Shown: in pieces, positions 4,140 through 32,077 of the stretch
Position numbering within the stretch: position 1 is the stretch's first letter
Layout: each line of letters starts with the position of its first letter
Source: Patescibacteria group bacterium
Lineage (GTDB): Bacteria; Patescibacteriota; Patescibacteriia; 2-12-FULL-57-11
Assembly (NCBI GenBank): GCA_004297205.1
Contig: SCUL01000002.1
Coordinates: forward strand, 530,893 to 594,892
Direction: 5' to 3'
Length of the DNA: 64,000 nt
Notes under the pieces: generated by a model
Told to the model about the DNA's origin: nothing
Database searches by the model: none
What the model saw: only the letters and a program-made list of their open reading frames with translations
Program-made: the position numbers and the translations under genes

Positions 4140-4168
4140 TTGACACGGCAGGGCGCCATCCATATACT
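4140..4168 (+). promoter_or_regulatory. sigma70-type promoter for tRNA-Gly (TTGACA-17-TATACT)
   Basis: TTGACA at 4140-4145, a 17-nt spacer, then TATACT at 4163-4168. This lies about 19 nt upstream of the tRNA 5' end. Confidence 0.5.
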
Positions 4169-4187: not shown

Positions 4188-4262
4188 GCGGGTATCGTAT
4201 AGCGGCTATTATGCCACCTTGCCATGGTGGAGATGGGGGTTCGACTCCCCCTACCCGCTCCA
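4188..4262 (+). tRNA. tRNA-Gly (anticodon GCC)
   Basis: Acceptor GCGGGTA pairs with TACCCGC. The anticodon stem CCACC/GGTGG carries loop TTGCCAT. T-arm GGGGG TTCGACT CCCCC, discriminator T and an encoded CCA are present. The D-arm is slightly atypical (3-4 bp). Confidence 0.8.
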
Positions 4263-10342: not shown

Positions 10343-10360
10343 CGTTTTTTCTACCGTCTA

Positions 10361-10389
10361 AATATAGCATTTTTTGGCCAAAATGTCAA
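10361..10389 (-). promoter_or_regulatory. sigma70 promoter (TTGACA-17-TATATT) for the SpoIID/LytB gene
   Basis: The minus strand reads TTGACA ttttggccaaaaaatgc TATATT. The ATG lies about 18 nt downstream of the -10, with no SD. Confidence 0.45.
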
Positions 10390-10410
10390 CTTTTCCGTAG
10401 ACTATCTGTC

Positions 10411-11853: not shown

Positions 11854-11857
11854 TCCC

Positions 11858-13426: not shown

Positions 13427-14575
13427 ATGTTCCGTAAAACACTTTTGCTCACGCTGGTCGGCACGCTGCTGCCGATGAGCGCGCTCGCCGCCACCTTCGC
13501 GGGCGGAGAAACCTACGCCCTCGGCTCGGGCATGCGGATCGACGGCGACTTGTACGCAGCCGGCGCGAGCGTTTCGGTCGGCGGCAACGTGACCGGCGAC
13601 CTGTACGCCGCGGGCGGCAGCGTCACCGTGACCGGCGCAGTCGGTCAGGACGTGGTCGTGGCCGGCGGCAATCTCACCTTGCTCGGCTCCGTCGGGGACG
13701 ACGTACGCGTCGCCGGCGGCCAGATAGCGATCGGCGACCGCATCGGCGGCGACCTGGTCGTGGCCGGCGGCATGGTGCATCTGCTCCCCGGCTCGGAAGT
13801 GGGCGGGGACCTGATCATCGCCGCGGGACAGGCCGTCGTCGAAGGCACCGTCAAAGGCAAACTCATCCTGCGCGGCGGCGCGGCGGTTCTGAACGGCGCG
13901 CTCACCGGTCCTGCAGACGTGGAGGTCGAGGAAACGCTGTCTATCGGAGACGCCGCGCGCTTTGGAAGCGCACTCGTCTACCGCGCGTCCCAGGAAGCAA
14001 GCGTCGCGGCCGGCGCCGTGCTCGGCGAAGTGCGCCGCGAACCGCTGCCCGAACGCATGCGCCCGGAAAAGATCGACGGCGGAGCCCTCGTGGGCCTCGC
14101 GGGTCTCATCGCCTTCGGCAAGCTCCTGGCCGCTCTCGGCGCAGCGCTCGTCGCCGTCTGGCTCTTCCGCAAAGGTACGCAGCAGCTCGTGACCGACGCG
14201 GTCGGCGACTTCTGGCCGATGCTCGGTCGCGGCTTCGCCACCGGCATCCTGATGCCGATCGCCGCCTTCCTACTGCTCATCACCGTCATCCTGTCGCCGA
14301 TCGGCGCGCTCACGGGCGCGGCCTTCGCGCTGCTCCTCGTCGCCGCGAAGATCCTCTCGGGCATCCTGTTCGGCGCCTGGCTCATCATGGCCGTGAAGAA
14401 GCAGAAGAAACCCGAAGCCACCTGGCAGGCCGCGCTTCTGGGCACCTTCCTCCTCCATCTCCTGTGGCTGATCCCGCTTCTCGGCTGGATCATTGCCGGC
14501 ATCTTCTGCACCGTCGCCTTCGGCGCGCTGGCCATCTGGGCCCGCGGCATTCTGAAGCCCCTGGCAAGCTCCTGA
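13427..14575 (+). CDS. secreted protein with bactofilin-like beta-helical repeats and a C-terminal multi-TM domain
   Basis: A signal peptide is followed by 8-9 tandem GDL(Y/V)AAGG-V-V-G-V repeats, then four hydrophobic helices. Confidence 0.6.
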   Translation: MFRKTLLLTLVGTLLPMSALAATFAGGETYALGSGMRIDGDLYAAGASVSVGGNVTGDLYAAGGSVTVTGAVGQDVVVAGGNLTLLGSVGDDVRVAGGQIAIGDRIGGDLVVAGGMVHLLPGSEVGGDLIIAAGQAVVEGTVKGKLILRGGAAVLNGALTGPADVEVEETLSIGDAARFGSALVYRASQEASVAAGAVLGEVRREPLPERMRPEKIDGGALVGLAGLIAFGKLLAALGAALVAVWLFRKGTQQLVTDAVGDFWPMLGRGFATGILMPIAAFLLLITVILSPIGALTGAAFALLLVAAKILSGILFGAWLIMAVKKQKKPEATWQAALLGTFLLHLLWLIPLLGWIIAGIFCTVAFGALAIWARGILKPLASS

Positions 14576-14588
14576 GGCTCTCCGCCGT

Positions 14589-14624
14589 CCCCGCCTCCCT
14601 CGGAGGCGGGGATTTTGGTACACT
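14589..14624 (+). promoter_or_regulatory. conserved hairpin + T-tract + TGGTACACT promoter cassette (copy 2)
   Basis: Sequence ccccgcctccctcggaggcgggg atttt ggTACACT. It lies 12 nt upstream of the galU ATG and also serves as terminator for the upstream gene. Confidence 0.45.
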
Positions 14625-14636
14625 TCGGTCGTGCCT

Positions 14637-15521
14637 ATGTCGAAATCCTCCTCCATCCGCAAAGCCATCCTCCCCGTGGCAGGCCTCGGGACCCGGTTCC
14701 TGCCCGCGACCAAGGCCATGCCCAAGGAAATGCTGGCCGTCGTCGACAAGCCGGTCATCCAGTACATCGTGGAAGAAGTCGTGGCCAGCGGCATCGAAGA
14801 GATCATCTTCGTGACGGCGCTCGGCAAACGCGCCATCGAAGACCACTTCGACCGCAACTTTGAACTGGAGTACCGCCTCGAACAAAAGAAGAAGGAGAAG
14901 GAGCTGGGCGCGCTCAAGCAAATCGGCAAGATGGCCAGATTCGCCTTCGTCCGCCAGCAGAAGCCGCTCGGCGATGGCGACGCGATTCTCGCCGCGCTGC
15001 CGTTCATCGACCAGCACGAACCGGTCGCGGTGGTCTTCGGCGATGCCATCACGCGCTCCCGGAAGCCGGGCCTCGCCCAACTCATCGACGTCTACAACCG
15101 CTACCAGGATCCGGTCGTCGGCGTCACGGCCGTTTCCAAGAAGGACATCTCCAACTACGGCGTCATCGACGGACACAAGCTCGACGGCGCGGCCTACGAG
15201 ATCCATGGCTTCGTGGAAAAACCGTCGCCATCCGAAGCGCCGTCGAACCTGGCCGTGATGGGCGAGTACATCGTGACGCCGGACGTGCTCACACTTCTCA
15301 AAAAGCAAAAACCGGGCAAGGACGGCGAACTCAGGCTCGCCAACGCGCTGATCGCCCACCTCAAGGCCGGCCGCGCGCTCTACGGCTGCGCCGTGGAGGG
15401 CGAGTGGTTCGACTGCGGCTCCAAGCTCGGCTTCCTCCAAGCCCAGATCGCCTTCGGCCTGGCGCATCCGGAAACCGGCAAGGCGTTGCACAAACACCTG
15501 CGCTCGCTTCGGGCGTCATAA
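14637..15521 (+). CDS. galU: UTP--glucose-1-phosphate uridylyltransferase
   Basis: N-terminal KAILPVAGLGTRFLPATKAMPKEMLAVVDKPVIQYIVEE matches the GalU family. The start is ATG 14637; the track start 14631 is GTG. Confidence 0.85.
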   Translation: MSKSSSIRKAILPVAGLGTRFLPATKAMPKEMLAVVDKPVIQYIVEEVVASGIEEIIFVTALGKRAIEDHFDRNFELEYRLEQKKKEKELGALKQIGKMARFAFVRQQKPLGDGDAILAALPFIDQHEPVAVVFGDAITRSRKPGLAQLIDVYNRYQDPVVGVTAVSKKDISNYGVIDGHKLDGAAYEIHGFVEKPSPSEAPSNLAVMGEYIVTPDVLTLLKKQKPGKDGELRLANALIAHLKAGRALYGCAVEGEWFDCGSKLGFLQAQIAFGLAHPETGKALHKHLRSLRAS

Positions 15522-15544
15522 ATGCCGCCCCTACACGCATTTCT

Positions 15545-16960
15545 ATGATCGGCTCTTTCTTCCGCCGCACCACCGCACTCGCCGCCATCGCCGCAGTCGT
15601 CCTTTCGGGCGTCGGCTGCACGCGCGGCGTCCCCGCCGACGTCGTTGAAGCGACGCGGCCGTTCACGCTCCAATTCTGGGGCGTGTTCGACGACTCCGAC
15701 GCCTTCGAACAGACCATCGCCCGCTACCGCGCGCTGCGCCCCCACATCACGGTCGAGTACCGCAAGCTGCGTCCGGAGGAATACGAGCGCGAGCTGATCA
15801 ACGCGCTGGCAGAAGACAAGGGGCCGGACATCTTCATGGTGCACAACACCCAGGTGGCCGAATACCAATCGAAGCTGCTCCCGCTCCCCGCATCGCTGAC
15901 CCTGCCCGTCCGCGAACAGCAGGGCACCATCCAAAAACAGGTCGTGACCGTGCTGCGCCAGGTGCCGTCGCTCTCCATCCGCCAGCTCCAGAGCCAGTTC
16001 GTGGACGTGGTAGCCGAGGACGTGGTGCTGCCGCGCGAAGAAACCACGACCGGCGGCGGCCGCCAGACCGTGAACCGCATCTACGGCCTGCCGCTCTCCG
16101 TGGACACGCTGGCGCTCTACTTCAACAAGACGCTCTTGAACCAGGCCGGCATTCCGGAGGCGCCGCGTTCCTGGGGCGAAGTACAGGCCGCCGCGCGCAA
16201 CAAGCGGCTGACCGTCTACGACGCCAGCCAGCGCATCACCCAGAGCGCCATTGCCATGGGCACGGCCGGAAACGTGGAGCGCGCCGTGGACGTGCTGCAG
16301 CTCCTGATGATGCAAAACCGCACCACCATGGCCGACGACGAGGGCACCGTTTCGTTCAACCGCCGCCCGGCCTCGGCCGTGGGCGAACTCAACCCCGGCG
16401 CCGAAGCATCCGTCTTCTATACCGACTTCGCCAACCCGGTGAAGGAGGTCTACACCTGGAACGACACCATGCCGAGCTCGCTCGAGGCCTTCGCCGGCGG
16501 ACGCACCGCCATGTTCCTGGGCTACTCCTACCACCTGGCCACCATCCGCGCCCGCGCGCCCAAGCTCGAAGTCGGCATCGCCCCGATCCCCCAGATCGGC
16601 GACGAGATCAACTTCGCCAACTACTGGGTGAACGGCGTCTCCACCAAGTCCGAACACGCGGACGAGGCCTGGGACTTCGTGCAGTTCATGGCCGCACAGG
16701 ACCAGGCCAAGACGTATCTGGACGCCACCAAGCGCCCGACGGCGCTGCGCGCGCTCGTCGGCGCGCAGCGGGAAGACCTCGATATCGGCGTGTTCGCGGC
16801 CCAGGCGCTGACCGCCAAGAGCTGGTACAAAGGGCATGACGCCGCGGCCATGGAAACAGCCTTCAAGGACCTGATCCGCGACGTCCTCGCCAACCCCTCC
16901 AATCCGCAGCAGTGGGTGGAAATCGCCGCCCAGAAAGTCGCCCAAACCTACAGCTTCTAA
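15545..16960 (+). CDS. ABC-transporter extracellular solute-binding lipoprotein (family 1, sugar-binding-like)
   Basis: Lipobox LSGVGC and an SBP_bac_1-like profile. The start is ATG 15545 (MIGSFFRR), 7 nt after TACACG. The first pilin gene follows 3 nt after the stop. Confidence 0.75.
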   Translation: MIGSFFRRTTALAAIAAVVLSGVGCTRGVPADVVEATRPFTLQFWGVFDDSDAFEQTIARYRALRPHITVEYRKLRPEEYERELINALAEDKGPDIFMVHNTQVAEYQSKLLPLPASLTLPVREQQGTIQKQVVTVLRQVPSLSIRQLQSQFVDVVAEDVVLPREETTTGGGRQTVNRIYGLPLSVDTLALYFNKTLLNQAGIPEAPRSWGEVQAAARNKRLTVYDASQRITQSAIAMGTAGNVERAVDVLQLLMMQNRTTMADDEGTVSFNRRPASAVGELNPGAEASVFYTDFANPVKEVYTWNDTMPSSLEAFAGGRTAMFLGYSYHLATIRARAPKLEVGIAPIPQIGDEINFANYWVNGVSTKSEHADEAWDFVQFMAAQDQAKTYLDATKRPTALRALVGAQREDLDIGVFAAQALTAKSWYKGHDAAAMETAFKDLIRDVLANPSNPQQWVEIAAQKVAQTYSF

Positions 16961-16963
16961 ACT

Positions 16964-17779
16964 ATGCGCCGCCCCGCTCTCCTCGTCCTGCCGCTTCTCG
17001 TCGCCACCGGTTTCTTTGCGGCGCAACCGGCATTCGCACAGCTGCCGACGCTGGTTCCCGAGGCCTGCCGCGGCACGGCGGAGCTCGAGGAATGCGGCCT
17101 GAACGAAGCCGTGCAAGTATTCATCAACGTCGCCCAGTTCATCTTCGGCATTTCCGGCGCGGTGGCGCTCCTCATGTTCGTCTGGGGCGGCTTCTTGTGG
17201 CTGACCTCGGCCGGCAGTGCGGAAAAAGTGAAACAAGGACAGGCCGTGATCACCGGCGCCGTCATCGGCCTGCTCATCATCTTCGGGGCCTACGTCGGCG
17301 TGCAGTTCGTCGTCGGGGCGCTGCGCGGCACGGTCGCGCCGGGCGAGGTGATGATTCCGGGCGAGCGCTGCGGCAGCGGCGAGGCAGCAGGGCTCGCCGT
17401 CTATACCGGACGGGAAACCACGACGTCGACCGGCGGCCTGGAGTGCATTACGGATTGCGGGTCGCTCTCCGACCTGGGCTACGGACGGGAGGACCTCCGC
17501 GAAATCTCCGCGGCCGACTATGAATGCATCGACGGTCTGTTCCCGGACGAGGAAGAACCCATCAAATGCTGCCGGGCGCGCGCCGGCGGGTCCGGGTCCA
17601 CGGGAACCGGCGAAGGCCCGTCCTCGCCGCCCGAGGGCACCAGCGGCCGCAACAACTGCCGCTGTGCCAACACGACGGTTTCGGCACAAAGCACCTGCGC
17701 CCTGTGCGCCGCCTTCTGCGAATCGCGCGACAGCACCCTGTCCCAGTTCAACGGCGAACCGCTCACCCGTTGCCCCTGA
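16964..17779 (+). CDS. TrbC/VirB2-like pilin domain (N-terminal) fused to a C-terminal Cys-rich domain
   Basis: A signal peptide is followed by the pilin core FIFGISGAVALLMFVWGGFLWLTSAGSAEKVKQGQAVITGAVIGLLIIFGAY. The C-terminal region has about 12 cysteines (ECITDC, KCCRARAGG, NNCRCANTT, CALCAAFC). Confidence 0.7.
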   Translation: MRRPALLVLPLLVATGFFAAQPAFAQLPTLVPEACRGTAELEECGLNEAVQVFINVAQFIFGISGAVALLMFVWGGFLWLTSAGSAEKVKQGQAVITGAVIGLLIIFGAYVGVQFVVGALRGTVAPGEVMIPGERCGSGEAAGLAVYTGRETTTSTGGLECITDCGSLSDLGYGREDLREISAADYECIDGLFPDEEEPIKCCRARAGGSGSTGTGEGPSSPPEGTSGRNNCRCANTTVSAQSTCALCAAFCESRDSTLSQFNGEPLTRCP

Positions 17780-17793
17780 GAGCCGCTCCGGAA

Positions 17794-17817
17794 CCCCCGC
17801 CTTGGCGGGGGTTTTTC
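17794..17817 (+). terminator. Rho-independent terminator followed by a TATACT promoter
   Basis: Hairpin cccccgc cttg gcggggg followed by tttttcgtt. TATACT at 17838-17843 lies 9 nt before ATG 17853. Confidence 0.55.
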
Positions 17818-17852
17818 GTTCCTTCCCGGAAATGCGCTATACTGGGAGCCAT

Positions 17853-18731
17853 ATGCGCCGCACTCTCCTTCTGCTCGCTGCACTCGCCGTCCTGATCGCC
17901 CCCGTGCTGGCGGTCCCTTCATCCGCGGCCGCGGCCGACATCTGGCGTTGCACCTCCTGTGAATGCAACTGTGACGGAACGCCCGACTTCGAAAGTGGCG
18001 GCATTCCGGATCCCTCCCCGTTCGATGGGACCGATCCGCAGGGGACGTGCGACCGCTTCTGCTCCGGCGCCGACGGGTGCGACCGCGACGTCCCCCGCGA
18101 AGCCGCACGTGCCGTGAGCTGCACCAACCTCGGCCCTGCGGGCGGCGGCGCGGCGACCGGTTCCTGCTGGTGCATCAACGATGCAGGCACCTGCAGCCAC
18201 AACGCCGGCGTGACTGAAGGCAACTGCCGCGACCTCGCCGCCGGACCCTGCCGCGGCCAGCGCGTGGTGCGCTTTGAAGTCGAATACGACTGCTCGGTGT
18301 GTCTCGCCTCAAGCGGCTCGGGCTGCACGGCCGGCGCAGGCAGCTGTTCGGAGGAAACCATCGCCCGCTGCGAAGCGGGTGCGGGCGGCGGGCTTTCCCC
18401 GTCCGCGCCGGGCACCGGTACGACCGGTGACGTCGTCGGTCCCGGGGGCGGCCGCGGCGCACCGGCACCGACGTTGCCGAACCCGCTCGGCGGCACCACC
18501 GACATCCGTACCATCATCGGCCGCGTCATCAACGCCGCGCTCGGCATTTCCGGTTCCATCGCGCTTTTGATGTTCATCTGGGGTGGAATGCTTTGGTTGA
18601 CGTCGGGGGGCAGTCCTGAGAGAATACAGAAAGGAAAAAATACGATTGTCTGGGCCGTCTTGGGGCTCGTCCTCATCTTCGGCTCCTACGCGATCCTGAA
18701 CTTCGTGCTCGGAGCGATCCTCAGCGCGTAA
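17853..18731 (+). CDS. Cys-rich secreted domain (N-terminal) fused to a C-terminal TrbC/VirB2-like pilin domain
   Basis: ATG 17853 gives MRRTLLLLAALAVLIAPVLA. The N-terminal domain has about 24 cysteines (CTSCECNCDG, CDRFCSGADGCD, CWCINDAGTC). A Gly-rich linker follows, then the pilin core ALGISGSIALLMFIWGGMLWLTSGGSPERIQKGKNTIVWAVLGLVLIFGSY. Confidence 0.7.
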   Translation: MRRTLLLLAALAVLIAPVLAVPSSAAAADIWRCTSCECNCDGTPDFESGGIPDPSPFDGTDPQGTCDRFCSGADGCDRDVPREAARAVSCTNLGPAGGGAATGSCWCINDAGTCSHNAGVTEGNCRDLAAGPCRGQRVVRFEVEYDCSVCLASSGSGCTAGAGSCSEETIARCEAGAGGGLSPSAPGTGTTGDVVGPGGGRGAPAPTLPNPLGGTTDIRTIIGRVINAALGISGSIALLMFIWGGMLWLTSGGSPERIQKGKNTIVWAVLGLVLIFGSYAILNFVLGAILSA

Positions 18732-18830
18732 AAGGGGACGCACTATCCGAAGCGCGGGCGTGCGACGATCCGAAAACATCGGAACGCCGCAGCACCCGCA
18801 CTTCACCAATGAAAGGGGGTGACAACCTGC

Positions 18831-19202
18831 ATGCAACACATCAAACGCTTCGCATCCGGCATCGTGCCGTTCCTGATGCTCTCGCTGCCGATGGCCGCTC
18901 AGGCGGCCGGCGTCAACCTGGGTCTCACGAGCGACGTCGAAGGCGCGCTCGGTCTCGGTACTCAAGACGTCCGCGTGACCATCGCCCGGATCATCAACGT
19001 GTTCATGGGGCTCCTCGGCATCATCGCCGTGGTGATCATCCTCTACGGTGGATTCATCTGGATGACCGCCGCCGGCAACGAGGAACGCGTCGACAAGGCC
19101 CGCAAGATGATCGTGGCCGGCGTCATCGGCCTGGCCATCATCCTCTCGGCCTACGCCATCGCCCGCTTCGTGGTCAACTCGCTGGTCAACGCCACGAGCT
19201 AA
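18831..19202 (+). CDS. TrbC/VirB2-like pilin paralog
   Basis: ATG 18831 is preceded by AAAGGGGG at 10 nt. Core FMGLLGIIAVVIILYGGFIWMTAAGNEERVDKARKMIVAGVIGLAIILSAY. Confidence 0.7.
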   Translation: MQHIKRFASGIVPFLMLSLPMAAQAAGVNLGLTSDVEGALGLGTQDVRVTIARIINVFMGLLGIIAVVIILYGGFIWMTAAGNEERVDKARKMIVAGVIGLAIILSAYAIARFVVNSLVNATS

Positions 19203-19221
19203 CACCCGAAACACGGAACGG

Positions 19222-19246
19222 CCTCCCCAAACGGGGGGTCGTTTTG
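19222..19246 (+). terminator. weak terminator plus extended -10 (TGGTATACT)
   Basis: Hairpin cctcccc aaac gggggg followed by tcgtttt. TGgTATACT at 19245-19253 precedes a 50-nt leader containing hairpin GGGCGA..TCGCCC. Confidence 0.4.
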
Positions 19247-19303
19247 GTATACTGGGGGTGTCTGAATTAGGGCGATCGCAAGGCTCGCCCCTACGCCACA
19301 TCC

Positions 19304-19732
19304 ATGACTATGGTGCACCGTGCGCTTATCCGTATTTTCGGGGCTTCGGCAGGCGCTTCGCTCGTGCTCTGGAGCAGCCGCGCCGCGCTGGCTTTTTCGG
19401 TCGAAGACACCGGCCTTAAAACCACCGCCGGAGAAGCCGGCATCCCGACGAGTGAAGCCTCGCTGCCGGTGCTTGTGGGCACCATCCTGAACGGCGTGTT
19501 GTCGCTCGTCGGCGTCGTCTTTCTCGTGCTCATCGTCTGGGGCGGCTTCCTCTGGATGACGGCCCGCGGCAACGACCAGCAGGTGGAGAAGGCCAAAAAC
19601 CTGATCACCTCGGCCGTCATCGGGCTCATCATCATCGCCGGCGGTTACGCCATCACCAACTTCGTCCTGACGCAGATCATCGCCGCGACGACCGGCGCGG
19701 GCGAGGCGCCAGCTCCGGCCGACGGCGGCTAG
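19304..19732 (+). CDS. TrbC/VirB2-like pilin paralog
   Basis: Core LSLVGVVFLVLIVWGGFLWMTARGNDQQVEKAKNLITSAVIGLIIIAGGY. Signal peptide and Ala/Pro-rich tail. Confidence 0.75.
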   Translation: MTMVHRALIRIFGASAGASLVLWSSRAALAFSVEDTGLKTTAGEAGIPTSEASLPVLVGTILNGVLSLVGVVFLVLIVWGGFLWMTARGNDQQVEKAKNLITSAVIGLIIIAGGYAITNFVLTQIIAATTGAGEAPAPADGG

Positions 19733-19736
19733 TCCT

Positions 19737-20171
19737 ATGCGCGCCTCTTTCCGCAGCATCGCCGCCGGAGCAGGTTTGGCTCTCGCGCTCTCGACCGCCG
19801 CGCTGCCCGCCTTTGCACAGGGACTCGGCGGCGCCCAGGGCGAACTGGAGAAAGCCGGAAAAAAAGCCTTCGGCGAACAGGTCGTCAATCGCCCGCTCGA
19901 AGTCGTGGCCGGCCAGATCATCAACGCGTTCCTGTCGCTCTTCGGCGTCCTGTTCCTGGCCCTGATGGTCTACGGCGGCTACCTCTGGATGAACGCCCGC
20001 GGCAACGAGCAGCAAGTGGAGAAAGCAAAAAGCCTGATTACCGCCGCGGTCATCGGGTTGGTCATCGCCTTAGCCGGCTACATCATCACGCGCTTCGTCG
20101 TGAGCGGCATCCTCACGGCAACAACCGGCGCGGGCGAAGCACCGGCTCCGGCCGAAGAATCCGCACCCTGA
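19737..20171 (+). CDS. TrbC/VirB2-like pilin paralog
   Basis: Core LSLFGVLFLALMVYGGYLWMNARGNEQQVEKAKSLITAAVIGLVIALAGY. Follows the previous gene after 4 nt. Confidence 0.75.
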   Translation: MRASFRSIAAGAGLALALSTAALPAFAQGLGGAQGELEKAGKKAFGEQVVNRPLEVVAGQIINAFLSLFGVLFLALMVYGGYLWMNARGNEQQVEKAKSLITAAVIGLVIALAGYIITRFVVSGILTATTGAGEAPAPAEESAP

Positions 20172-20172
20172 T

Positions 20173-20556
20173 ATGCACCGCTTCTTCACCGCCGCCGCCT
20201 CGGCCATATTCGGCATTGCCGCGCCGACGGTCGTCTTTGCGGCCAGCGCCCTGGAACGGCTGGACAAGGCCGCCAATGAAGCATTTCCCGGCCAGCGCGA
20301 GCGCCAGGCCCCGGAAGTCGCCGGTCAGGTCATCAACTTCTTCATCGGCGTCCTCGGCATCCTGTTCCTCGTGCTCATGGTCTACGGCGGCTACCTCTGG
20401 ATGAACGCCCGCGGCAACGAGCAGCAGGTGGATAAAGCCAAGAGCCTCATCACCCAGGCAGTGCTCGGACTGATCATCGTCCTCGCCGGCTACGCCATCA
20501 CCTACTTCGTTGTCACCAACCTCGTGAACGCCACCGGCGGCGTCACCACGCCCTGA
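20173..20556 (+). CDS. TrbC/VirB2-like pilin paralog
   Basis: Core IGVLGILFLVLMVYGGYLWMNARGNEQQVDKAKSLITQAVLGLIIVLAGY. Follows the previous gene after 1 nt. Confidence 0.75.
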   Translation: MHRFFTAAASAIFGIAAPTVVFAASALERLDKAANEAFPGQRERQAPEVAGQVINFFIGVLGILFLVLMVYGGYLWMNARGNEQQVDKAKSLITQAVLGLIIVLAGYAITYFVVTNLVNATGGVTTP

Positions 20557-20559
20557 CCT

Positions 20560-20961
20560 ATGACGCGCCTCCGCACCTACGCCCGCCGATTCGCTGCCGC
20601 CGCGCCTCTCGCTGCCGCCTCGTTCTTTCTGACGGCCAACGCCATGGCCGCGTCGGGGCTCATCAACAACCTGCAGGACACGGGCGAAGCCGGATTCGGC
20701 GTCCGGGAACCGCGCTCGCTGCCGGTCACCGTCGGACGCATCATCAACGTCTTTCTCGGCATCCTCGGCATCTTCGCCGTGGTCCTCATCATCTACGCCG
20801 GCTACCTCTGGATGAACGCCCGCGGCAACGAGCAGCAGGTGGAGAAGGCCCGCAGCATCCTGACGCAGGCCGTGATCGGATTGATCATCATCCTGGCCAG
20901 CTACTCGATCGCCGGCTTCGTCGTCCGGAACCTCGTGAACGCCACGACCGGCACCCGCTAG
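20560..20961 (+). CDS. TrbC/VirB2-like pilin paralog
   Basis: Core LGILGIFAVVLIIYAGYLWMNARGNEQQVEKARSILTQAVIGLIIILASY. Follows the previous gene after 3 nt. It is the last gene of the array. Confidence 0.75.
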   Translation: MTRLRTYARRFAAAAPLAAASFFLTANAMAASGLINNLQDTGEAGFGVREPRSLPVTVGRIINVFLGILGIFAVVLIIYAGYLWMNARGNEQQVEKARSILTQAVIGLIIILASYSIAGFVVRNLVNATTGTR

Positions 20962-20970
20962 TGAAACCAA

Positions 20971-20996
20971 AAGCCCCCTTGCGGGGGCTTTTTTGA
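20971..20996 (+). terminator. Rho-independent terminator closing the pilin operon
   Basis: Hairpin agccccc ttgc gggggct followed by tttttt. Confidence 0.65.
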
Positions 20997-21070
20997 TAAA
21001 AAAATACACGCGCCACGGAGGAGAACCTTTTGGGTCCATCACTCCGTGACGCGCTTGCGCCGTTGTGGCG

Positions 21071-21991
21071 CTAGGGTGCTCCGCACCTCCTGCCGCCGAG
21101 CTCGTCCCAGCGGAGACTGAGAAGGTCGCCGCCGGGACCACTCGGATCGAAGTCGAAACTGCCTCCGGCGAGCCGCATGGGAGTCATCCCGAGCGGCGCG
21201 TCGTAGATCGTCACTACGACGTTGTGATGTCCCGGACCGACCGGAATGTAGGTGTAGGAGCCGGACAGCCTGTCGCGCCCCGGAGGGAGCAAGTAGGCCG
21301 TGCTGCGCACGCCATGGCTGTCGATCACGGGGATCGCAGGCCAGGCGCTGCCCATCTCGACAGGGATCACCACGCGGCCGTCCACTCGGACTTCCGCGGC
21401 GATGGTGAAGTGCGCGACACCGCCGCTCCCGAGACAGAACAGCCCGTTCCAGAGCCGCAGGCCGCGTCGAGACGACCAGGGCACCGGACGCCGGTGGAGG
21501 AAGCCCGGGAGCGACGTGACGAGCGGCATGCCGCCCGACATGCTCGCCGCAGCCTCCCCGATGTAGGGCAGCCGCGGCGTCGTCGGCTCTACCGGCACCA
21601 CCGTGGGCGGCTCTGCGACGCGCTCCTCGCGGAGCGCCCGCAGATCCTCCTCGAGCAACCGAAGCCGCTCGAGCAGGGCCGCACGCTCGGCATCCGCGAC
21701 GACCGCTTCCGCACGCTCGGCCGCGTCGTCGAGCGTCACGGCGGCGGGCGGTGACACGGGCGCCACCACCGGCGCGGCGGCGACCGTCTCCTCCGCGAGA
21801 CCGCGAAGGATCCGGATGCGCCGCTCGCTGGCGTCGGCGAGCGCCTCCTCGCCGCAGGCCCGGAGGCCCGCGACGGTCGCCTCGGTGGGCAGATCGACCA
21901 CGGGCGGACAGGGCGGCCGCTCGGCCTCCTGCGCCAGCACCGTGACCGGGACGAAGAGCGCGAGCGCGCAGACGACGATCGTCCGGCTCAT
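21071..21991 (-). CDS. secreted hypothetical protein (306 aa) with coiled-coil region
   Basis: ATG 21991 overlaps the upstream stop (ATGA). Signal peptide MSRTIVVCALALFVPVTVLAQEA. An Ala/Glu/Arg-rich helical segment is followed by a C-terminal globular domain. Confidence 0.55.
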   Translation of the reverse strand: MSRTIVVCALALFVPVTVLAQEAERPPCPPVVDLPTEATVAGLRACGEEALADASERRIRILRGLAEETVAAAPVVAPVSPPAAVTLDDAAERAEAVVADAERAALLERLRLLEEDLRALREERVAEPPTVVPVEPTTPRLPYIGEAAASMSGGMPLVTSLPGFLHRRPVPWSSRRGLRLWNGLFCLGSGGVAHFTIAAEVRVDGRVVIPVEMGSAWPAIPVIDSHGVRSTAYLLPPGRDRLSGSYTYIPVGPGHHNVVVTIYDAPLGMTPMRLAGGSFDFDPSGPGGDLLSLRWDELGGRRCGAP

Positions 21992-22596
21992 CGCGCACCT
22001 CCGTCCGTCGTTCCCTCGACCGTGTAGCCGTGGAACATGTCCACGGCCTCGCCGGTGGCCCGCTCGAGACGCTCGACGCGCCGCGAGAGGTCGGCCGAAC
22101 CGACCGCGCCGTAGCCCCCGACCGTGTCGGCGTAGGCCGAGGTCGGCCCCGTGTCGAACATCGGGAAGTAGTACCCGGGTCCGCCGACACCCCCGCCGCC
22201 GAAGTACGAGCCGAAGCTCGGGTCCTCGGAGAGCAGCGTCTGCAGCAGCCACGGGTACCGCCCGATGCAGGTCGAGAGGTCGCGCTCGCGCCCGTCGTCC
22301 GCGCCGTGCATGCACGCCGCGAGCTCCGGGGTGAGCGCCTCGATCAGCAGCGCGTGCGCGCGGCTGATGCCGGCGCGTGCCGTGATGCGGCCCGCCTCGG
22401 CCTCGGCCACCACGGTGGTGGCGCGAACCGAGCCGGCGGCCAGGATCGTCGACGACGGGGGCTCGGTGGAGCTCCCGCGGATCGACGCCCCGTGTCCGTC
22501 GTAGGACACGGGGTGCGAGAGGGAGATCCCTCCCGCGCAGCCCGCTCCCAGAAGGACGAGGGCCAGGATTCCACAGAAACAGTTGAGCTCGCGCAT
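21988..22596 (-). CDS. lipoprotein, unknown function (203 aa)
   Basis: ATG 22596 is preceded by AAGGAGAG at 7 nt. Lipobox LLGAGC. A Gly-rich segment GGGGVGGPGYYFP is present. Confidence 0.6.
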   Translation of the reverse strand: MRELNCFCGILALVLLGAGCAGGISLSHPVSYDGHGASIRGSSTEPPSSTILAAGSVRATTVVAEAEAGRITARAGISRAHALLIEALTPELAACMHGADDGRERDLSTCIGRYPWLLQTLLSEDPSFGSYFGGGGVGGPGYYFPMFDTGPTSAYADTVGGYGAVGSADLSRRVERLERATGEAVDMFHGYTVEGTTDGGAR

Positions 22597-22730
22597 CGTC
22601 GTTCTCTCCTTGGGAGCGGGTTTACGTGCCTCCCAGCACGGTGCCTTCCAGCACATCCCGGCCGATTTCATGATAAACAGGCCAAAATGTGCTGGAAAAC
22701 ACGACTTGGGATTCAAAGAACGAACGGCTG

Positions 22731-22760
22731 AATATACCAGAAAAAGGCCTTTTTGTCAAC
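22731..22760 (-). promoter_or_regulatory. strong sigma70 promoter (TTGACA-17-TGgTATATT) with a 125-nt structured leader
   Basis: The minus strand reads TTGACA aaaaggcctttttctgg TATATT. The leader contains a 9-bp inverted repeat CCAGCACAT..ATGTGCTGG and ends in the SD. Confidence 0.6.
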
Positions 22761-22847
22761 CCCCACTTTAACACGGGCAAAAAGAAGCGGGTGCCTCGGT
22801 GAGCCCTTGTGGGACCCAACCGAGACACCCGTTCGCGACCGGGCGCG

Positions 22848-24464
22848 TTACCGCCCGTAGTCGCTGTACGCAACCCGCCACGACTCGCTCTGGCAGGCCC
22901 CCACCGCGTCGCGGTAGGCCTCCCAGCCGCTGCGGCCGGCAGCGTCGGGACACTCGTCCCCGTGCTCCGCGAAGTAGGCCCGGATGCGGCCTTCCTCCGC
23001 GCGTGCCGGCGCCCAGGGGTCGCTCCGCCGCGGTGGCGGGGGCGACTCTCTGGAGGCCGACGTGGCCGGCGGCGGATCGCTGCGCGGGGGTTCCGCGCTG
23101 CGCTCCATCGCGGCGATGCGGGTGCGGCAGATCCCGCCCACCTCGTCCCATCGCGCATGCGCCACGATGGCGATGCCGGCGATGAGACTCACGGTCGTGA
23201 GCCAGCCGATGACGTTCCCGGTTCGCGGGAAGTACCGTCGAAGGCCCCACAGCACGCCCCAGATGAGCCAGAGAACCAGAACGAACAGGAATCCGAACGG
23301 GTTCGTCTGACAGAGCGTCTGGTTCGTCGGCCAGATGAGATGCGCAATGAAGACCAGGGTAGCAATGGTGCTCGCCACGGCGAGGAGGAAGATCCAGGCG
23401 TTCGCCAGGATCCAACCACCGCCGTCTCCACCGCCGTCGCCGCGCCCGACCGTTCCGGACGCCGCGATGCCGGGAATGCCCGCCTTTGCGCCGAGGCGCG
23501 CCTCACCCTCCGGCGGCTCTCTCAGGAGTCGCACGATCACCGAGATGACGGCGACGTGGAACCCGATGAAGCCGAGGAGGAGGAGCGCGCCGACCACGAC
23601 GCCGAGGACGTCTCCGCTGTGCGGCCACTGGGCCGCCACGGCGTGCTGCGTCAGCAGATCGGTGTGCGCCGGCACGTACCAGGTGATCCAGTTGTGGAAC
23701 AGCCGGTACCAGACGTTCGCCAGCAGCCCGTCGAGACCGACGGGCGCGGGCACCGCCATGGTGCTACCGCTCACGCCGCCGGCGAGCACCCTCCACCACT
23801 GGCCGAACACGGCCCGGAAGAGGATGGTCGCCACACCCCCGAAGATGTAGTGCAGCATGACCCCCGCGAGGAAGTCGAAGCCGAGCCCTACCTTTCGGCC
23901 GCGCTGGCGAAGCCAGAACGCCGCGGCAAGCATGCCGACGCCGACCATGCCGAGAACGGCGAGGGTCAGCACGTGCGGGAAGGGCACCATCCATGCCCCC
24001 ATCGTGAGCACCCAGGCCGGCAGGCAGAACGCCCGCTTGCCCAGCGTCATGATGGCCGCGCTGTTGAACAGCCGGATGTTGCCCTCTCCGTCCCGGACCT
24101 TGGGGTCCTGGACGCGAGCGAGCTGCCCACCCTCCCGGAGCACCTCCGCGATCTCTCCTGCAGGGATCTGCAGGAGGTCGACGCCGATGCGCAGCCGGAC
24201 CACGTAGATCCAGATGAGCGCGGCGAGGAGAAGCGCGGGCGGGAAGGCGGCGGCGAGGCCGAGAAGGGCGAGGAGCCACGACTCGACGAAGGCGCTGCAG
24301 ACCATCAGCCCCATGCCACCCGCGAAGGCGAGCACGAGGAGCGGGATGATCAGCAGTGACCACGCCCGGATGAAGGTCAGAATCGCCACGAAGGGCGACC
24401 AGACCAGGGCGAGGGCGGCCGTGTAGCCGTTCCACGCCTGCAGAGCTACGGTTCTCCAGTTCAT
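22848..24464 (-). CDS. polytopic membrane protein (538 aa) with a C-terminal soluble Cys-containing domain
   Basis: ATG 24464 is preceded by AGGAGG at 5 nt. About 12 TM helices. The C-terminus reads YFAEHGDECPDAAGRSGWEAYRDAVGACQSESW. Confidence 0.6.
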   Translation of the reverse strand: MNWRTVALQAWNGYTAALALVWSPFVAILTFIRAWSLLIIPLLVLAFAGGMGLMVCSAFVESWLLALLGLAAAFPPALLLAALIWIYVVRLRIGVDLLQIPAGEIAEVLREGGQLARVQDPKVRDGEGNIRLFNSAAIMTLGKRAFCLPAWVLTMGAWMVPFPHVLTLAVLGMVGVGMLAAAFWLRQRGRKVGLGFDFLAGVMLHYIFGGVATILFRAVFGQWWRVLAGGVSGSTMAVPAPVGLDGLLANVWYRLFHNWITWYVPAHTDLLTQHAVAAQWPHSGDVLGVVVGALLLLGFIGFHVAVISVIVRLLREPPEGEARLGAKAGIPGIAASGTVGRGDGGGDGGGWILANAWIFLLAVASTIATLVFIAHLIWPTNQTLCQTNPFGFLFVLVLWLIWGVLWGLRRYFPRTGNVIGWLTTVSLIAGIAIVAHARWDEVGGICRTRIAAMERSAEPPRSDPPPATSASRESPPPPRRSDPWAPARAEEGRIRAYFAEHGDECPDAAGRSGWEAYRDAVGACQSESWRVAYSDYGR

Positions 24465-24474
24465 CTCTTCCTCC

Positions 24475-25989
24475 TCAGATCTTCAGGTTCCGAATGCCGT
24501 TGGTGATGTCGCCCGTGACCGTCCCGGCGATGTCCGCGCCGAGCTGGCTGAGCATCTTGCCGGTACGACCCGCGAAGGCCGCCACCGAGCGCGATGCGCC
24601 AGCGTCCTTGATGAGCTGCATCCGCTGCTTGAGCAGGTCGAGCGTGAGCTCGCCCTTGCGCTCCGGGATCGCCATCAGGCGCGCCCAGAAGTCGTCCCAG
24701 GTCAGCGCCGGCACCGAAGCCGTCGCCGCCGGATGCATCCGCTCGAGCGTCGTCAGACGACCCTCGAAGATCGGCTTGGTGAGCGCGACCGTCCGCTTGG
24801 GAAGCGACAGGACGCGCTGCTTGATGACAGCCAGGGTGAGCGGCGCGCCGCCGGCGGGCGGGGCGATGAGCCCCTGCGCCTGCGTGACGGTCGCGACCCG
24901 CGACTCTGCCTCGGCGATGAGCGCCGCGGCCTCGCCCGGAGCCACCGTCACGGCGGTTGCCGTGAACGTGCTCCAGGTCACGCTCGCGGCGACGACCGCC
25001 GGCAGACCCCCTGCGTCCGCCGGAGCGGAGAACAGGTAGACCATGCGGTCGGCGTGGCCGGCGTGCGGCGCGAGCCGCCGCAGGGTGTCCGTGAAGTCGT
25101 CCGGATCCGCGTACTCGACGCGGAGCCAGTCGACCTGGGCGGCGATCTGCGTGAAGGCGACCGCCGGAACGGCGGGCGCCGCCACGGCCGGCAGCGGTGC
25201 CAGCAGGCCGGTGAGCTGCCCGTCGCGCGTGATGCGCTTGCGCAGCTCCTCGTAGGCCGCCGGACGCTTGGTCGCCTCGCAGTTGGTCTCGACGAACTTC
25301 ACGACCTCGAGTCGGGCGTTGTTCCCGGCGAGATCCGTGTCGAACGGCGGGGGCGGCAGCGGCGTCGCACTCAGGGTCACCCCTTCGTGCGCGTAGTTGA
25401 GGTGCTGGTGGATGTCCGCCTGCACCTCCGCCGCGAGCTGTCTCTCCGTCGGGTCCAGTGACCTGAGGCCGCTGTCGAGCAGAGCGCCGATCTCCGGGTG
25501 CTTGTTGAGCACTTCGGAGGGCGACATCTCGCGCGGGCCGGCCGGAGCCGCCGGAGCGGTGCCCGCGGCCGGAGCCGCCGGGCCGGTGACGCCCTTGCCG
25601 TCCTGTTCCTCGCGGAGGCGGCGGGTGAAGCCCTCCGCGAACTCGCTGGACCAGGCACGCGGACGCTCGTGGTCGGTCCACTTCATCGCGACGAAGTTGG
25701 CCGCGGCCGGACCGACGTACTCGAGGATGCTCGCGGGCGCGACCAACAGGAGGGCGCGCGCCGCGGGCATCTTCAGGAAGTGCTCCGCGAACCGCACGCC
25801 GAGCTTGTCGGCCTGCTTGTTGACCGCCGAATCGGCGAGAACCTCGCCGAAGGTGTCGGTCGGACTGATGTCCAGCACCGCGTTGAGCAGGGCCTTGCCC
25901 CGCCCCACCTGCCGCCTGAGCGGGTCGGCGTTGTCGTCGTCCCCGCCCTTCCTACCGCCGCCCTTGCGGGCACCTCGATCGTCTGCCAT
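24475..25989 (-). CDS. hypothetical protein (504 aa), no recognisable domain
   Basis: ATG 25989 is preceded by GGAGGA at 7 nt. The stop lies 10 nt before the downstream ATG (operon). Ala/Pro-rich linkers. Confidence 0.6.
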   Translation of the reverse strand: MADDRGARKGGGRKGGDDDNADPLRRQVGRGKALLNAVLDISPTDTFGEVLADSAVNKQADKLGVRFAEHFLKMPAARALLLVAPASILEYVGPAAANFVAMKWTDHERPRAWSSEFAEGFTRRLREEQDGKGVTGPAAPAAGTAPAAPAGPREMSPSEVLNKHPEIGALLDSGLRSLDPTERQLAAEVQADIHQHLNYAHEGVTLSATPLPPPPFDTDLAGNNARLEVVKFVETNCEATKRPAAYEELRKRITRDGQLTGLLAPLPAVAAPAVPAVAFTQIAAQVDWLRVEYADPDDFTDTLRRLAPHAGHADRMVYLFSAPADAGGLPAVVAASVTWSTFTATAVTVAPGEAAALIAEAESRVATVTQAQGLIAPPAGGAPLTLAVIKQRVLSLPKRTVALTKPIFEGRLTTLERMHPAATASVPALTWDDFWARLMAIPERKGELTLDLLKQRMQLIKDAGASRSVAAFAGRTGKMLSQLGADIAGTVTGDITNGIRNLKI

Positions 25990-31951: not shown

Positions 31952-32077
31952 GACACCAGTATATAGGACGACTGAAGAAAAGAGAGGCTTGAAACAAGCC
32001 CCTCCCCCTACGAATCTCTGCGGACCACGGGCCTTGCCGGTCCTCACCCAGCATGGATGTGAGGACCAGCAGGATCC

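Follow-up and report, generated by a model that had tools for sequence, protein, structure and literature searches.

Seven consecutive open reading frames on the plus strand, from 16964 to 20961 of the window (the whole 64-kb stretch of DNA analysed here), are supported by sequence comparison as paralogues carrying a TrbC/VirB2-type pilin domain, a family expanded in CPR bacteria. The preliminary description had read the locus in this way, at the same positions, and a Pfam profile search agrees: all seven proteins match the T4SS_pilin family (PF18895) with 31.5 to 49.6 bits, against a gathering score of 26.6 bits, and sub-threshold matches to TrbC/VirB2 (PF04956) map to the same region. Six of the seven also match the NCBIfam model NF045849 (E-values from 1e-10 to 7e-6), gene 3 alone reaching its cut-off (40.8 bits for a cut-off of 40). 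The seven genes (EPO33_04050 to EPO33_04080, from a Patescibacteria MAG) are all annotated as "hypothetical protein" at NCBI. Their GC3 of 0.79-0.92 is of coding type, the GC content of the array is that of its flanks, and a pilin HMM detected no eighth copy in the 64-kb window. Searching the PDB with the pilin sequences gave only spurious matches. As first described, the genes for a solute-binding lipoprotein and for two Cys-rich fusion proteins stand ahead of the short pilins. The lipoprotein is a family-1 sugar-type protein (SBP; 15545..16960, plus strand; SBP_bac_1, E = 9e-25); among proteins of solved structure, it is closest to SBPs for sugar, maltose and trehalose. Its gene is preceded by galU, for a UTP-glucose-1-phosphate uridylyltransferase (14631..15521, plus strand; TIGR01099, 328.8 bits for a cut-off of 326.8).

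A core of about 78 amino acids can be aligned across the seven pilins, with 10 invariant positions, rising to 21 among the five short genes (genes 3-7). Every protein has a signal-peptide-like N-terminus followed by two hydrophobic segments around a conserved polar loop, and the AF2 model of gene 7 is a helical hairpin (H54-85/H91-130, pLDDT 88-95). The loop motif initially considered near-invariant holds in the five short genes but takes the variant form GG(F/M)LWLTS(A/G)GS in genes 1 and 2. Calling the five short pilins highly similar was likewise an overstatement, their core identity being 42-68%; full-length BLAST identity within the array is 30-54%.

Gene 1 (type 1; 16964..17779, plus strand; 271 aa; PF18895, 32.4 bits; EPO33_04050) encodes a signal peptide, a P-x-C...C pair that is kept in orthologues, the pilin hairpin and a 150-aa Cys-rich C-terminal ectodomain with 14 Cys. 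In three close relatives, the part of its orthologue that encodes the Cys-rich extension is broken by differing frameshifts or a stop, and one of these lesions falls within a poly-G tract. Gene 2 (type 2; 17853..18731, plus strand; 292 aa; 49.6 bits; EPO33_04055) has the reverse build, with a signal peptide, a Cys-rich N-terminal ectodomain of about 190 aa (18 Cys) and a C-terminal hairpin; its start, which lies within a longer ORF (17520-18731), agrees with NCBI entry TAK05126.1. In relatives, the same pilin module forms the N-terminus of giant Cys-rich proteins of 900-3,400 aa, as might equally be expected if it served simply as a membrane anchor. Gene 3 (type 3; 18831..19202, plus strand; 123 aa; 40 bits) is 90% identical to its orthologue in the related locus L001 and has an unusually low dS (0.30-0.33). 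The last four genes, all on the plus strand and all with positional orthologues in relatives, follow one another closely: gene 4 (type 4; 19304..19732; 142 aa; 39.3 bits), gene 5 (type 5; 19737..20171; 144 aa; 32.3 bits) after a 4-nt gap, gene 6 (type 6; 20173..20556; 127 aa; 31.5 bits) after 1 nt, and gene 7 (type 7; 20560..20961; 133 aa; 41.4 bits; EPO33_04080) after 3 nt.

Expression signals

The internal boundaries proposed at 17794-17843 and 19222-19253 are both marked by a hairpin and a TATACT box, and TATACTGGG occurs in the 64 kb at these two sites only (0.01 occurrences expected). At the first, a terminator-like hairpin with a T-run follows gene 1 (17792..17816, plus strand; -22.9 kcal/mol; kept in L003), and a TATACT -10 box (17838..17843, plus strand) stands exactly 9 nt ahead of the ATG of gene 2. 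L003 and L001 have exactly the spacing of the window, which suggests a leaderless or near-leaderless mRNA. At the second, an intrinsic terminator after gene 3 (19214..19246, plus strand; -23.8 kcal/mol, z -3.2) has stems that differ among the window, L003 and L001 yet stay paired through compensatory changes; it runs into a promoter-like extended -10 element, TGG-TATACT (19245..19253, plus strand), kept as TATACT in L003 and TACACT in L001 and followed by a 5' UTR of about 50 nt ahead of genes 4-7. A strong intrinsic terminator closes the array (20969..20994, plus strand; -17.3 kcal/mol, z -3.7). These sequence signals support three transcription units (SBP and gene 1; genes 2-3; genes 4-7) instead of the four originally counted, and the terminator/promoter boundaries suggest that expression is set unit by unit, in line with the independent tuning that had been suggested.

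The spacer between genes 2 and 3 contains a long imperfect hairpin (18749..18804, plus strand; -40 kcal/mol, z -2.9) that lacks a T-run and is not a canonical terminator; it is present in L001 and L010 and absent from L003. Between it and gene 3 lies an extended Shine-Dalgarno (SD) sequence, AAAGGGGGTGA (18812..18822, plus strand), with no other match in the 64-kb window even when one mismatch is allowed. In 26 of 37 arrays, the first gene of type 3 has a corresponding GAAAGG(G/A)GGTGA motif ahead of it, a frequency that, like those given below, holds for this clade only since related loci were sampled through their resemblance to either gene 7 or the SBP. SD-like motifs precede only 0-2 genes of each other pilin type.

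The lipoprotein gene and the type IV secretion context

The SBP gene lies upstream in 36 of 44 arrays, and its lipobox Cys is kept in orthologues. A pilin ORF directly follows it in 64 of 68 SBP orthologue loci, and this pilin is of type 1 in 60 of 65. In the window, the SBP stop codon lies 3 nt ahead of the ATG of gene 1, and in nine loci the SBP stop and the type-1 start overlap by 4 nt; the type-1 gene thus stands directly after the SBP gene and is often translationally coupled to it. The module opens with galU, whose place upstream of the SBP gene is conserved: 33 of the 36 SBP-linked arrays at genome loci have it there, as do 29 of 58 SBP loci from metagenomes. In none of the loci viewed is an ABC permease or ATPase encoded next to the SBP.

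The reported lack of VirB4, VirB6 and a coupling ATPase nearby extends to the whole 64-kb window, where sizeable ORFs gave no Pfam match to VirB4, VirB3, VirB6 or T4CP. Around the 79 related arrays (±10 kb), no VirB4 was found among Walker-A ORFs of at least 400 aa. By contrast, VirB2/TrbC of the T-pilus and RP4 pilus, which belong to Gram-negative type IV secretion systems (T4SS), is usually encoded by one gene beside virB1, virB3 and virB4, whereas here a monoderm organism carries seven genes, some encoding large Cys-rich ectodomains. The array pilins share with VirB2/TrbC a signal peptide, two hydrophobic helices, a short polar loop and a W-M-x-x-R/G motif ending helix 1, and hhalign against genuine VirB2/TrbC brings helix 1 and the polar loop into register with an E-value of 2.8e-4 and a probability of 41%. 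Homology to VirB2 proper is weak, as the pilins fall below the PF04956 cut-off and the PDB search gave spurious matches only. To our knowledge, members of the T4SS_pilin family have never been observed to form a pilus.

Could these proteins, then, operate independently of any T4SS, as two-helix membrane proteins partnering the SBP in a solute-capture scaffold or as anchors displaying Cys-rich domains, their "pilin" name reflecting remote similarity only? The SBP-type 1 pair, translationally coupled and the most invariant feature of these loci, would suit such a role, as would the lack of a VirB4 near these arrays, the giant Cys-rich fusions, the weak link to VirB2 and a fold that is a generic hairpin. 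We nevertheless consider this rather unlikely. In other Patescibacteria, PF18895/VirB2-like genes adjoin virB4 in 1,135 assemblies, and the pilin series of Ca. Southlakia epibionticum ML1 lies within an essential T4SS cluster with VirB4 (PMC12102498, PMC10633639), unlike the array described here. NF045849 ties the genes to Mbov_0395 / ICE_MMCAP2_0565, a pilin-like protein for conjugal transfer from Mycoplasma ICEs, whose host is likewise a wall-reduced monoderm and whose system is of MPF-FATA type; that protein is encoded by a single small gene in a mobile conjugative element, whereas the present seven-gene array is chromosomal and has no mobile-element genes. The lack of an ABC permease or ATPase beside the SBP gene in the loci viewed also counts against this reading, and simple anchors would hardly account for seven ordered paralogues.

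Order and selection of the pilin types

Synteny and positional orthology extend to L001, L003, L005, L007 and L010. The first pilin is of type 1 in 36 of 37 SBP-linked arrays and the second of type 2 in 32 of 37, and the order of types (1, 2, 3, then 4-7) is kept across genomes of 31-65% GC. Arrays comprise 4 to 13 genes, the number of type 4-7 genes varying between lineages.

Tandem arrays of 2-11 VirB2-like pilins have been published for Patescibacteria, where they are common, one being essential in Southlakia (PMC12102498, PMC10633639, PMC12857230), so that this kind of array is already known. Quinonero-Coronel et al. (2025) give 441 arrays in 383 assemblies, with mean identity of 25% and maximum of 54%; like ours, these consist of tandem, sequence-divergent PF18895 paralogues from the same phylum. 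Their work makes no mention of an SBP or galU linkage and, as far as consulted, gives no description of a fixed type order, a type-3-specific SD or Cys-rich fusions; it suggests variation and versatility, whereas our data point to fixed, specialised subunits. In the literature searched, there is no mention of the type order, the purifying selection, the SBP link, the SD confined to type 3 or the lack of VirB4 in the window and the 79 related loci. What appears to be undescribed is a set of specialised subunits whose order is ancient and which comes after a sugar-binding lipoprotein gene.

Tandem amplification of VirB2-type genes is also known from the T4SS of Bartonella and Anaplasma, where the paralogues are thought to form an antigenic or host-range repertoire of interchangeable pilins expressed alternately, an idea also raised for Patescibacteria (via PMC12102498). 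Divergent tandem paralogues with separate promoters, a type 4-7 number that differs by lineage, and the disrupted gene 1 orthologues would fit such a repertoire. It is nonetheless improbable here, and the antigenic variation envisaged in the preliminary description is not borne out. Besides the one-to-one positional orthology and constant order, the pilins are under purifying selection (dN/dS 0.07-0.44, the values for genes 4-7 resembling those of the neighbouring galU and SBP genes), which is evidence against cassettes for antigenic variation; the paralogues, only 60-75% identical in DNA sequence, contain neither conversion tracts nor invertible repeats; and genes 4-7, with gaps of 1-4 nt, are co-transcribed and so not alternately expressed. 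The functional variation also mentioned there is the better fit if taken to mean that the pilins have diverged into fixed kinds of subunit.

A proposed heteromeric structure

The explanation that we favour, with moderate confidence, is that a Patescibacteria bacterium, probably from the Uhrbacteria/Magasanikbacteria/Falkowbacteria group, carries on its chromosome an operon cluster, inherited vertically, for seven Sec-exported, two-helix hairpin VirB2-like pilins. These would be specialised subunits in an order of long standing, not interchangeable variants, with a pilus-like product made via a distant T4SS. A dedicated surface-filament locus, as originally proposed, is plausible on these sequence features. 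We infer polymerisation, T4SS dependence and the subunit roles as follows. Sec would insert the pilins into the membrane, from which they would be extracted and assembled, probably by an MPF-FATA-like T4SS encoded elsewhere in the genome, into a heteromeric pilus-like or envelope-spanning structure for host-cell contact or exchange.

Type IV pili (T4P) and type II secretion systems (T2SS) combine one highly expressed major subunit with an operon of low-abundance minor subunits, certain of which have extra domains that make a tip or initiation complex. Although the array may be likened to them in this layout and Patescibacteria possess T4P (PMC10633639), fold and processing are unrelated. That the array encodes T4P/T2SS pilins or pseudopilins cleaved by a prepilin peptidase is effectively refuted by Sec-type A-x-A sites where a class III signal peptide would show the motif G|F-x-x-x-E, which these sequences lack, by two-helix hairpins where T4P/T2SS subunits have one N-terminal helix joined to a globular head, and by the lack of any match to T4P Pfam families at E-values up to 1.

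In the T4SS-assembled structure that we favour, types 1 and 2 would be adhesive or ligand-binding subunits with the SBP as their partner, type 1 being co-transcribed and translationally coupled with the SBP and, in this lineage, carrying its Cys-rich ectodomain at the C-terminus, and type 2 being made from its own promoter, probably as a near-leaderless mRNA. Given an N-out/C-out hairpin topology, both Cys-rich domains would lie outside the membrane. Type 3, the only type with an extended SD and one with low dS, is likely the major and most abundant subunit, and types 4-7, encoded by a tightly packed operon devoid of SD motifs, are likely low-abundance minor subunits.

A tandem array of PF18895 pilin-domain genes

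The window carries seven consecutive plus-strand genes between positions 16964 and 20961 (genes 1 to 7: 16964-17779, 17853-18731, 18831-19202, 19304-19732, 19737-20171, 20173-20556 and 20560-20961), all of coding-type composition (GC3 of 0.79-0.92); the array does not differ from its flanks in GC content. The array corresponds to EPO33_04050-04080, the product of gene 7 being identical to the 'hypothetical protein EPO33_04080 [Patescibacteria group bacterium]'. Gene 2 begins at the ATG at 17853, inside a longer mechanical ORF (17520-18731); this start yields a canonical signal peptide and agrees with the NCBI protein TAK05126.1 (292 aa). The ATG at 18831, 8 nt past a strong ribosome-binding site, is most likely the start of gene 3.

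All seven proteins exceed the gathering cut-off of the Pfam HMM PF18895 (T4SS_pilin), with scores of 31.5-49.6 bits against 26.6, and their homologues likewise carry this domain; judged by profile matching, their membership of the family is firm, and the preliminary description was right in recognizing seven consecutive genes of a pilin family. Six of the seven are also related to the NCBIfam model NF045849, a 'pilin-like conjugal transfer protein' of Mycoplasma ICE, whose cut-off is reached by gene 3. With 75,440 cluster representatives (E up to 0.001) the family is very large, and a family HMM search detected no further copy in the 64-kb window.

All array proteins are positively charged at the N-terminus and contain a hydrophobic stretch that has an A-x-A-type site and was called as a signal peptide by rule of thumb (hydropathy, A-x-A sites), together with two strongly hydrophobic segments. 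The AlphaFold2 model of gene 7, based on an alignment of 111 family members, bears out the predicted hairpin, with helices at residues 54-85 and 91-130 (block pLDDT of 88-95); between the two helices of the array proteins lies a conserved loop, Y-G-G-x-x-W-M...G...K-A. The 78-aa cores share 10 invariant positions over all seven genes and 21 over the five short ones. In the core, genes 4-7 are 55-68% identical to one another and 42-59% identical to gene 3; genes 1-2 match the other five at 28-41%.

Loci of this kind have already been described. A series of essential predicted pilins lies within the T4SS cluster of Southlakia epibionticum (Wang et al., 2023; PMC10633639), and a survey with PF18895 and PF04956 found VirB2-like pilins in 1,948 assemblies, all of which encode the Patescibacteria-clade VirB4, with a location close to virB4 in 1,135, and 441 arrays of 2-11 genes (mean identity 25%) for which versatility towards hosts was suggested (Quinonero-Coronel et al., 2025; PMC12102498). 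That survey defined an array as at least two PF18895/PF04956 genes, in tandem or one gene apart, that are divergent paralogues; the window has seven tandem divergent paralogues with core identities of 28-68%, in a Patescibacteria genome. It is a variant detached from virB4, distinguished by a conserved pair of genes at its head, galU (14631-15521, +) and a gene for a sugar-type solute-binding lipoprotein (SBP; 15545-16960, +), by the coupling of SBP to a distinct first pilin and by an ordered series of subunit types. Solute-binding proteins, ABC and GalU are not mentioned in PMC12102498, and the literature searched yielded no paper combining Patescibacteria, VirB2 and solute binding.

Several proteins of the representative library (P0123-P0128, P0140, P0141, P0148 and P0174) contain 4-8 pilin modules per polypeptide, in up to 820 aa. 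They could be either true poly-pilins or read-through gene calls from lineages with an altered genetic code.

Relation to VirB2 and search for T4SS genes

A relationship with type IV pilus or T2SS pilins can be dismissed, as the array proteins have Sec-type signal peptides and two hydrophobic helices, lack a class III signal peptide (G↓F/M-x-x-x-E), and match no T4P family in Pfam. The TrbC/VirB2 identity initially proposed for them stands in part: it holds for PF18895 but not for PF04956 (TrbC/VirB2), where all array genes remain under the gathering cut-off of 27.9 bits. The best PF04956 scores are those of gene 2 (23.5 bits, E 6.6e-5) and gene 1 (21.4 bits, E 2.9e-4), followed by 10-18 bits for genes 3, 6 and 7, with no match for genes 4 and 5 at E up to 1. 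When the 111 family members were aligned by hhalign with five annotated VirB2/TrbC proteins from MPF-T plasmids, the probability was only 41% (E 2.8e-4), over 41 columns that place helix 1 and the loop in register. A sequence profile search of the PDB returned only spurious matches (designed beta-propellers), and a tblastn search with gene 3 against 72,556 plasmids had no match. Homology to VirB2 is plausible, if weakly supported by these comparisons, and a pilus function of the array proteins is putative.

TrbC/VirB2 conjugative pilins polymerise into an extracellular pilus containing lipid, sometimes in cyclised form, and are encoded together with VirB3, VirB4, VirB6 and other mating-pair-formation genes; no Pfam match to such genes accompanies the array in the window. 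Pfam matches on all sizeable window ORFs include RuvB, SpoIID, Wzx, Wzy_C, GalU, SBP, DUF2079, GT2, PGI, NifS/NifU, FtsK and RecA, among others; the FtsK protein has a gamma domain and is therefore the chromosomal FtsK. No VirB4, VirB3, VirB6, VirB8 or coupling protein was detected on these ORFs, in agreement with the first reading, nor was VirB4 seen within 10 kb of the array in the relatives' contigs viewed. The 22 Walker-A ORFs of at least 400 aa in 79 related loci form nine similarity groups, without any VirB4. Eight of the groups correspond, from the members scanned with Pfam, to SMC, ClpB, DnaA, IF2, EngA, FtsK, ABC-F and PhoH. The ninth comprises giant surface proteins: the member scanned showed Ig-like, PKD and CarboxypepD_reg domains, while an N-terminal pilin module is borne by another two.

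Six minus-strand window ORFs of 242-562 aa have no Pfam match even at E up to 1 (21071-22315, 21988-22716, 22848-24464, 24475-25989, 28762-30405 and 30359-32047), the third being a multi-pass membrane protein by eye. As candidates for hidden T4SS components such as VirB6 they were rejected: besides lacking Pfam matches, they are absent from two distant loci with the same gene order (L005 and L007), and Pfam-less counterparts of similar size and position occur only in close relatives (L001, L003 and L004) that share the whole neighbourhood. Upstream of galU, at 10321-13036, lie a gene for a Wzx-type flippase and a Wzy_C/O-antigen-ligase-like gene. Pilin O-glycosyltransferases belong to the Wzy_C family, and the conserved C-terminal A-T-(T/S/G) tails of the pilins led us to consider that they might be glycosylated by these upstream genes; this idea stays speculative because Wzx and Wzy_C are not conserved beside the array in distant relatives.

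The galU-SBP-pilin module in related genomes

Contigs with near and distant homologues have the same module, in which galU and SBP are followed by 7-9 pilin genes; titles among the related loci include Candidatus Uhrbacteria, Magasanikbacteria and Falkowbacteria. BLAST matrices revealed 1:1 positional orthology between the window pilins and those of L001 and L003, and the same order of types (paralogue classes named after the matching window gene) in L005 (38% GC) and in L007, from a closed genome of 45% GC. Scanning species-representative genomes with a pilin profile gave the 79 related loci, in which pilin, SBP and GalU HMMs built for this analysis delimited 53 arrays of at least three pilin ORFs. 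An orthologous SBP lies directly upstream in 36 of the 44 arrays whose upstream side is within the contig, accompanied by GalU in 33. In a set of 37 SBP-linked arrays, gene 1 is the best match of the leading pilin in 36 cases and gene 2 that of the second in 32; behind these there is usually a gene 3-type, followed by a varying number of types 4-7. In a reciprocal test with 80 metagenome loci seeded by SBP orthologues (31-65% GC), a pilin ORF directly follows SBP in 64 of the 68 loci with room downstream, and this pilin is of type 1 in 60/65. These counts refer to loci collected through their similarity to gene 7 or SBP, with longest-ORF calls and types assigned by best BLAST hit.

The SBP stop codon precedes the ATG of gene 1 by 3 nt in the window, and it overlaps the type-1 start by 4 nt in nine genome loci. 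In one metagenomic lineage (L106, L117, L119, L122, L125, L133-L135, L150 and L172), about 4 kb of unrelated genes part the SBP-type 1 pair from the other pilins; the pair, intact where the other pilins are split off, is thus the most constant unit of the locus. By eye, translations of this insert in L122 and L135 include an HTH protein, a possible methyltransferase, a small membrane protein, a possible glycosyltransferase and a large membrane protein. SBP is nearest to sugar, maltose and trehalose binding proteins, and each of the five orthologues inspected retains its lipobox cysteine; in the loci viewed, it is accompanied by neither an ABC permease nor an ATPase.

Several Magasanikbacteria-like loci (L022, L027, L031, L046, L048, L049, L063 and L086) have an extra pilin gene between galU and SBP, and arrays there reach 10-13 genes. 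Three pilin arrays without SBP lie about 5 kb downstream of dnaA (L041:3747-5093, L058:1996-3342 and L074:1804-3159), consistent with a note in the literature that T4SS genes of Patescibacteria are often near the replication origin. Many MAG records with this Patescibacteria module bear the title 'uncultured Gammaproteobacteria bacterium' (L010, L011, L017, L018, L021 and many others), apparently through systematic mislabelling within a single series of submissions.

Subunit types, expression signals and possible function

The first two pilins are Cys-rich fusions. In gene 1, an N-terminal pilin module is followed by a 150-aa extension, with 14 Cys in total (2 before helix 1 and 12 in the extension); in gene 2, a domain of about 190 aa with 18 Cys separates the signal peptide from a C-terminal pilin module. 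The inferred N-out/C-out topology of the hairpin would place both Cys-rich domains outside, where disulfides can form. A P-x-C...C pair directly before helix 1 is common to type 1 proteins. A Cys module common to the ectodomains of genes 1 and 2 (C-x-C...C-x-x-C-x-x-x-C) was not retained, as just 8 of the 157 long pilin-domain ORFs contain it.

Transcription signals, predicted from the nucleotide sequence like the leaderless mRNA and major subunit proposed below, divide the array into three units, SBP with gene 1, genes 2-3 and genes 4-7, rather than the four first suggested. Gene 1 is followed by a G+C hairpin of 7-9 bp with a T-run (17792-17816), and TATACT at 17838-17843 stands exactly 9 nt ahead of the gene 2 ATG; this spacing is identical in two relatives and suggests a leaderless or near-leaderless gene 2 mRNA. 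The spacer between genes 2 and 3 has a long hairpin without T-run, absent in L003. After gene 3, a terminator (19214-19246) abuts TGG-TATACT (19245-19253), followed by a leader of about 50 nt; the stems of this terminator differ in sequence among the window, L003 and L001, with pairing maintained. The sequence TATACTGGG is found in the 64 kb only at the predicted promoter sites of genes 2 and 4 (0.01 occurrences expected). Rfam gave nothing above noise over 14000-23000, so the conserved 5' UTR before gene 4 belongs to none of the known RNA families. Gaps of 4, 1 and 3 nt separate genes 4-7, and a strong terminator (20969-20994) closes the run. TATACT also occurs at 4163-4168, about 20 nt upstream of a tRNA-Gly gene (4188-4262), which fits TATACT as a usual -10 box of this genome.

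Gene 3 is preceded by an extended Shine-Dalgarno sequence, AAAGGGGGTGA (18812-18822), the sole such site in the 64-kb window. In 26 of 37 arrays the first type-3 gene has the motif GAAAGG(G/A)GGTGA in front of it; counted over all type-3 genes, an SD-like motif precedes 20/69, against only 0-2 genes for each other type. An extended SD of 11-12 nt is kept before the type-3 gene across 31% to 65% GC (L001, L003, L007, L010, L012-L014 and others). The dS of gene 3 is unusually low (0.30-0.33 versus 0.58-1.07).

In Nei-Gojobori comparisons of the window with the L003 and L001 orthologues, dN/dS lay at 0.07-0.27 in genes 4-7, at 0.19-0.44 in gene 3, at 0.24-0.43 in genes 1-2 and at 0.11-0.25 in the flanking galU and SBP. 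Paralogues within the array are 60-75% identical at the DNA level, without long identical tracts or switch-like inverted repeats among them. The possible antigenic variation envisaged in the preliminary description is disfavoured on these grounds, dN/dS being in the purifying range throughout (0.07-0.44), conversion-like tracts absent and positional orthology conserved. Taken together, the selection, DNA divergence and type-3 SD results lead us to favour fixed, specialised subunits over alternately expressed antigenic variants, with type 3 as the probable abundant, major subunit.

We consider it rather probable, taking the statement as a whole, that the array encodes a heteromeric VirB2-like surface structure which would be built by a distantly encoded T4SS and would have SBP as its partner. 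The chief alternative is that the array acts without a T4SS, in a membrane or SBP-linked role. A bolder version, to which we give little credence, holds that the invariant, translationally coupled SBP-type 1 pair and the ordered pilins form a new apparatus, a heteromeric VirB2-like filament or conduit with its base or tip coupled to a solute receptor; ABY1-type Patescibacteria would use it to capture or import host-derived sugars or glycans, and it may act independently of the classical VirB4 cluster. If true, this would provide a molecular handle on the role of 'uptake conduit' speculated for Patescibacteria T4SS pilins; a 2025 review treats that role as speculation and pilus formation in Patescibacteria as only a possibility (PMC12857230).

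Much of bacterial diversity belongs to the Patescibacteria, which rely on host cells; in the one species tested, the T4SS-like system and its series of pilins proved essential. Current views are not overturned, since the family is very common and such arrays are already published. In one large clade, the pilins appear as a fixed ordered set in which one is probably the major subunit and two bear ectodomains, with a solute-binding protein as partner; this turns the picture of 'many variable pilins' into testable hypotheses on the shaft subunit, the host-contacting subunits, the binding of host sugars by SBP and the need for VirB4.

Three close relatives have gene 1 orthologues that are interrupted, each in its own way, within the Cys-rich extension (window counterpart 17400-17779), by a 1-nt deletion (L001:6510-7315), an in-frame TGA replacing the Gly codon of the window (L003:6640-7445 and L004:3-320) or a frameshift in a G7-G9 poly-G linker (L010:6368-7260). 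Their terminal six-Cys module is still conserved, in a shifted frame, and the interruptions could be phase variation, recoding or MAG errors. Related loci also contain pairs of giant proteins with a complete gene 7-like pilin module at the N-terminus (signal peptide and hairpin, >100 bits): L019:7200-15733, L024:8059-19165, L033:7597-19939 and L037:8295-20050, as well as L023, L040, L045, L056, L059, L062, L064, L083, L085 and L087. One member usually has about 890 aa (range 548-957) and 26 Cys, the other 1,800-3,380 aa and 100-150 Cys, suggesting that giant Cys-rich surface proteins, too, are anchored or incorporated through the pilin module.
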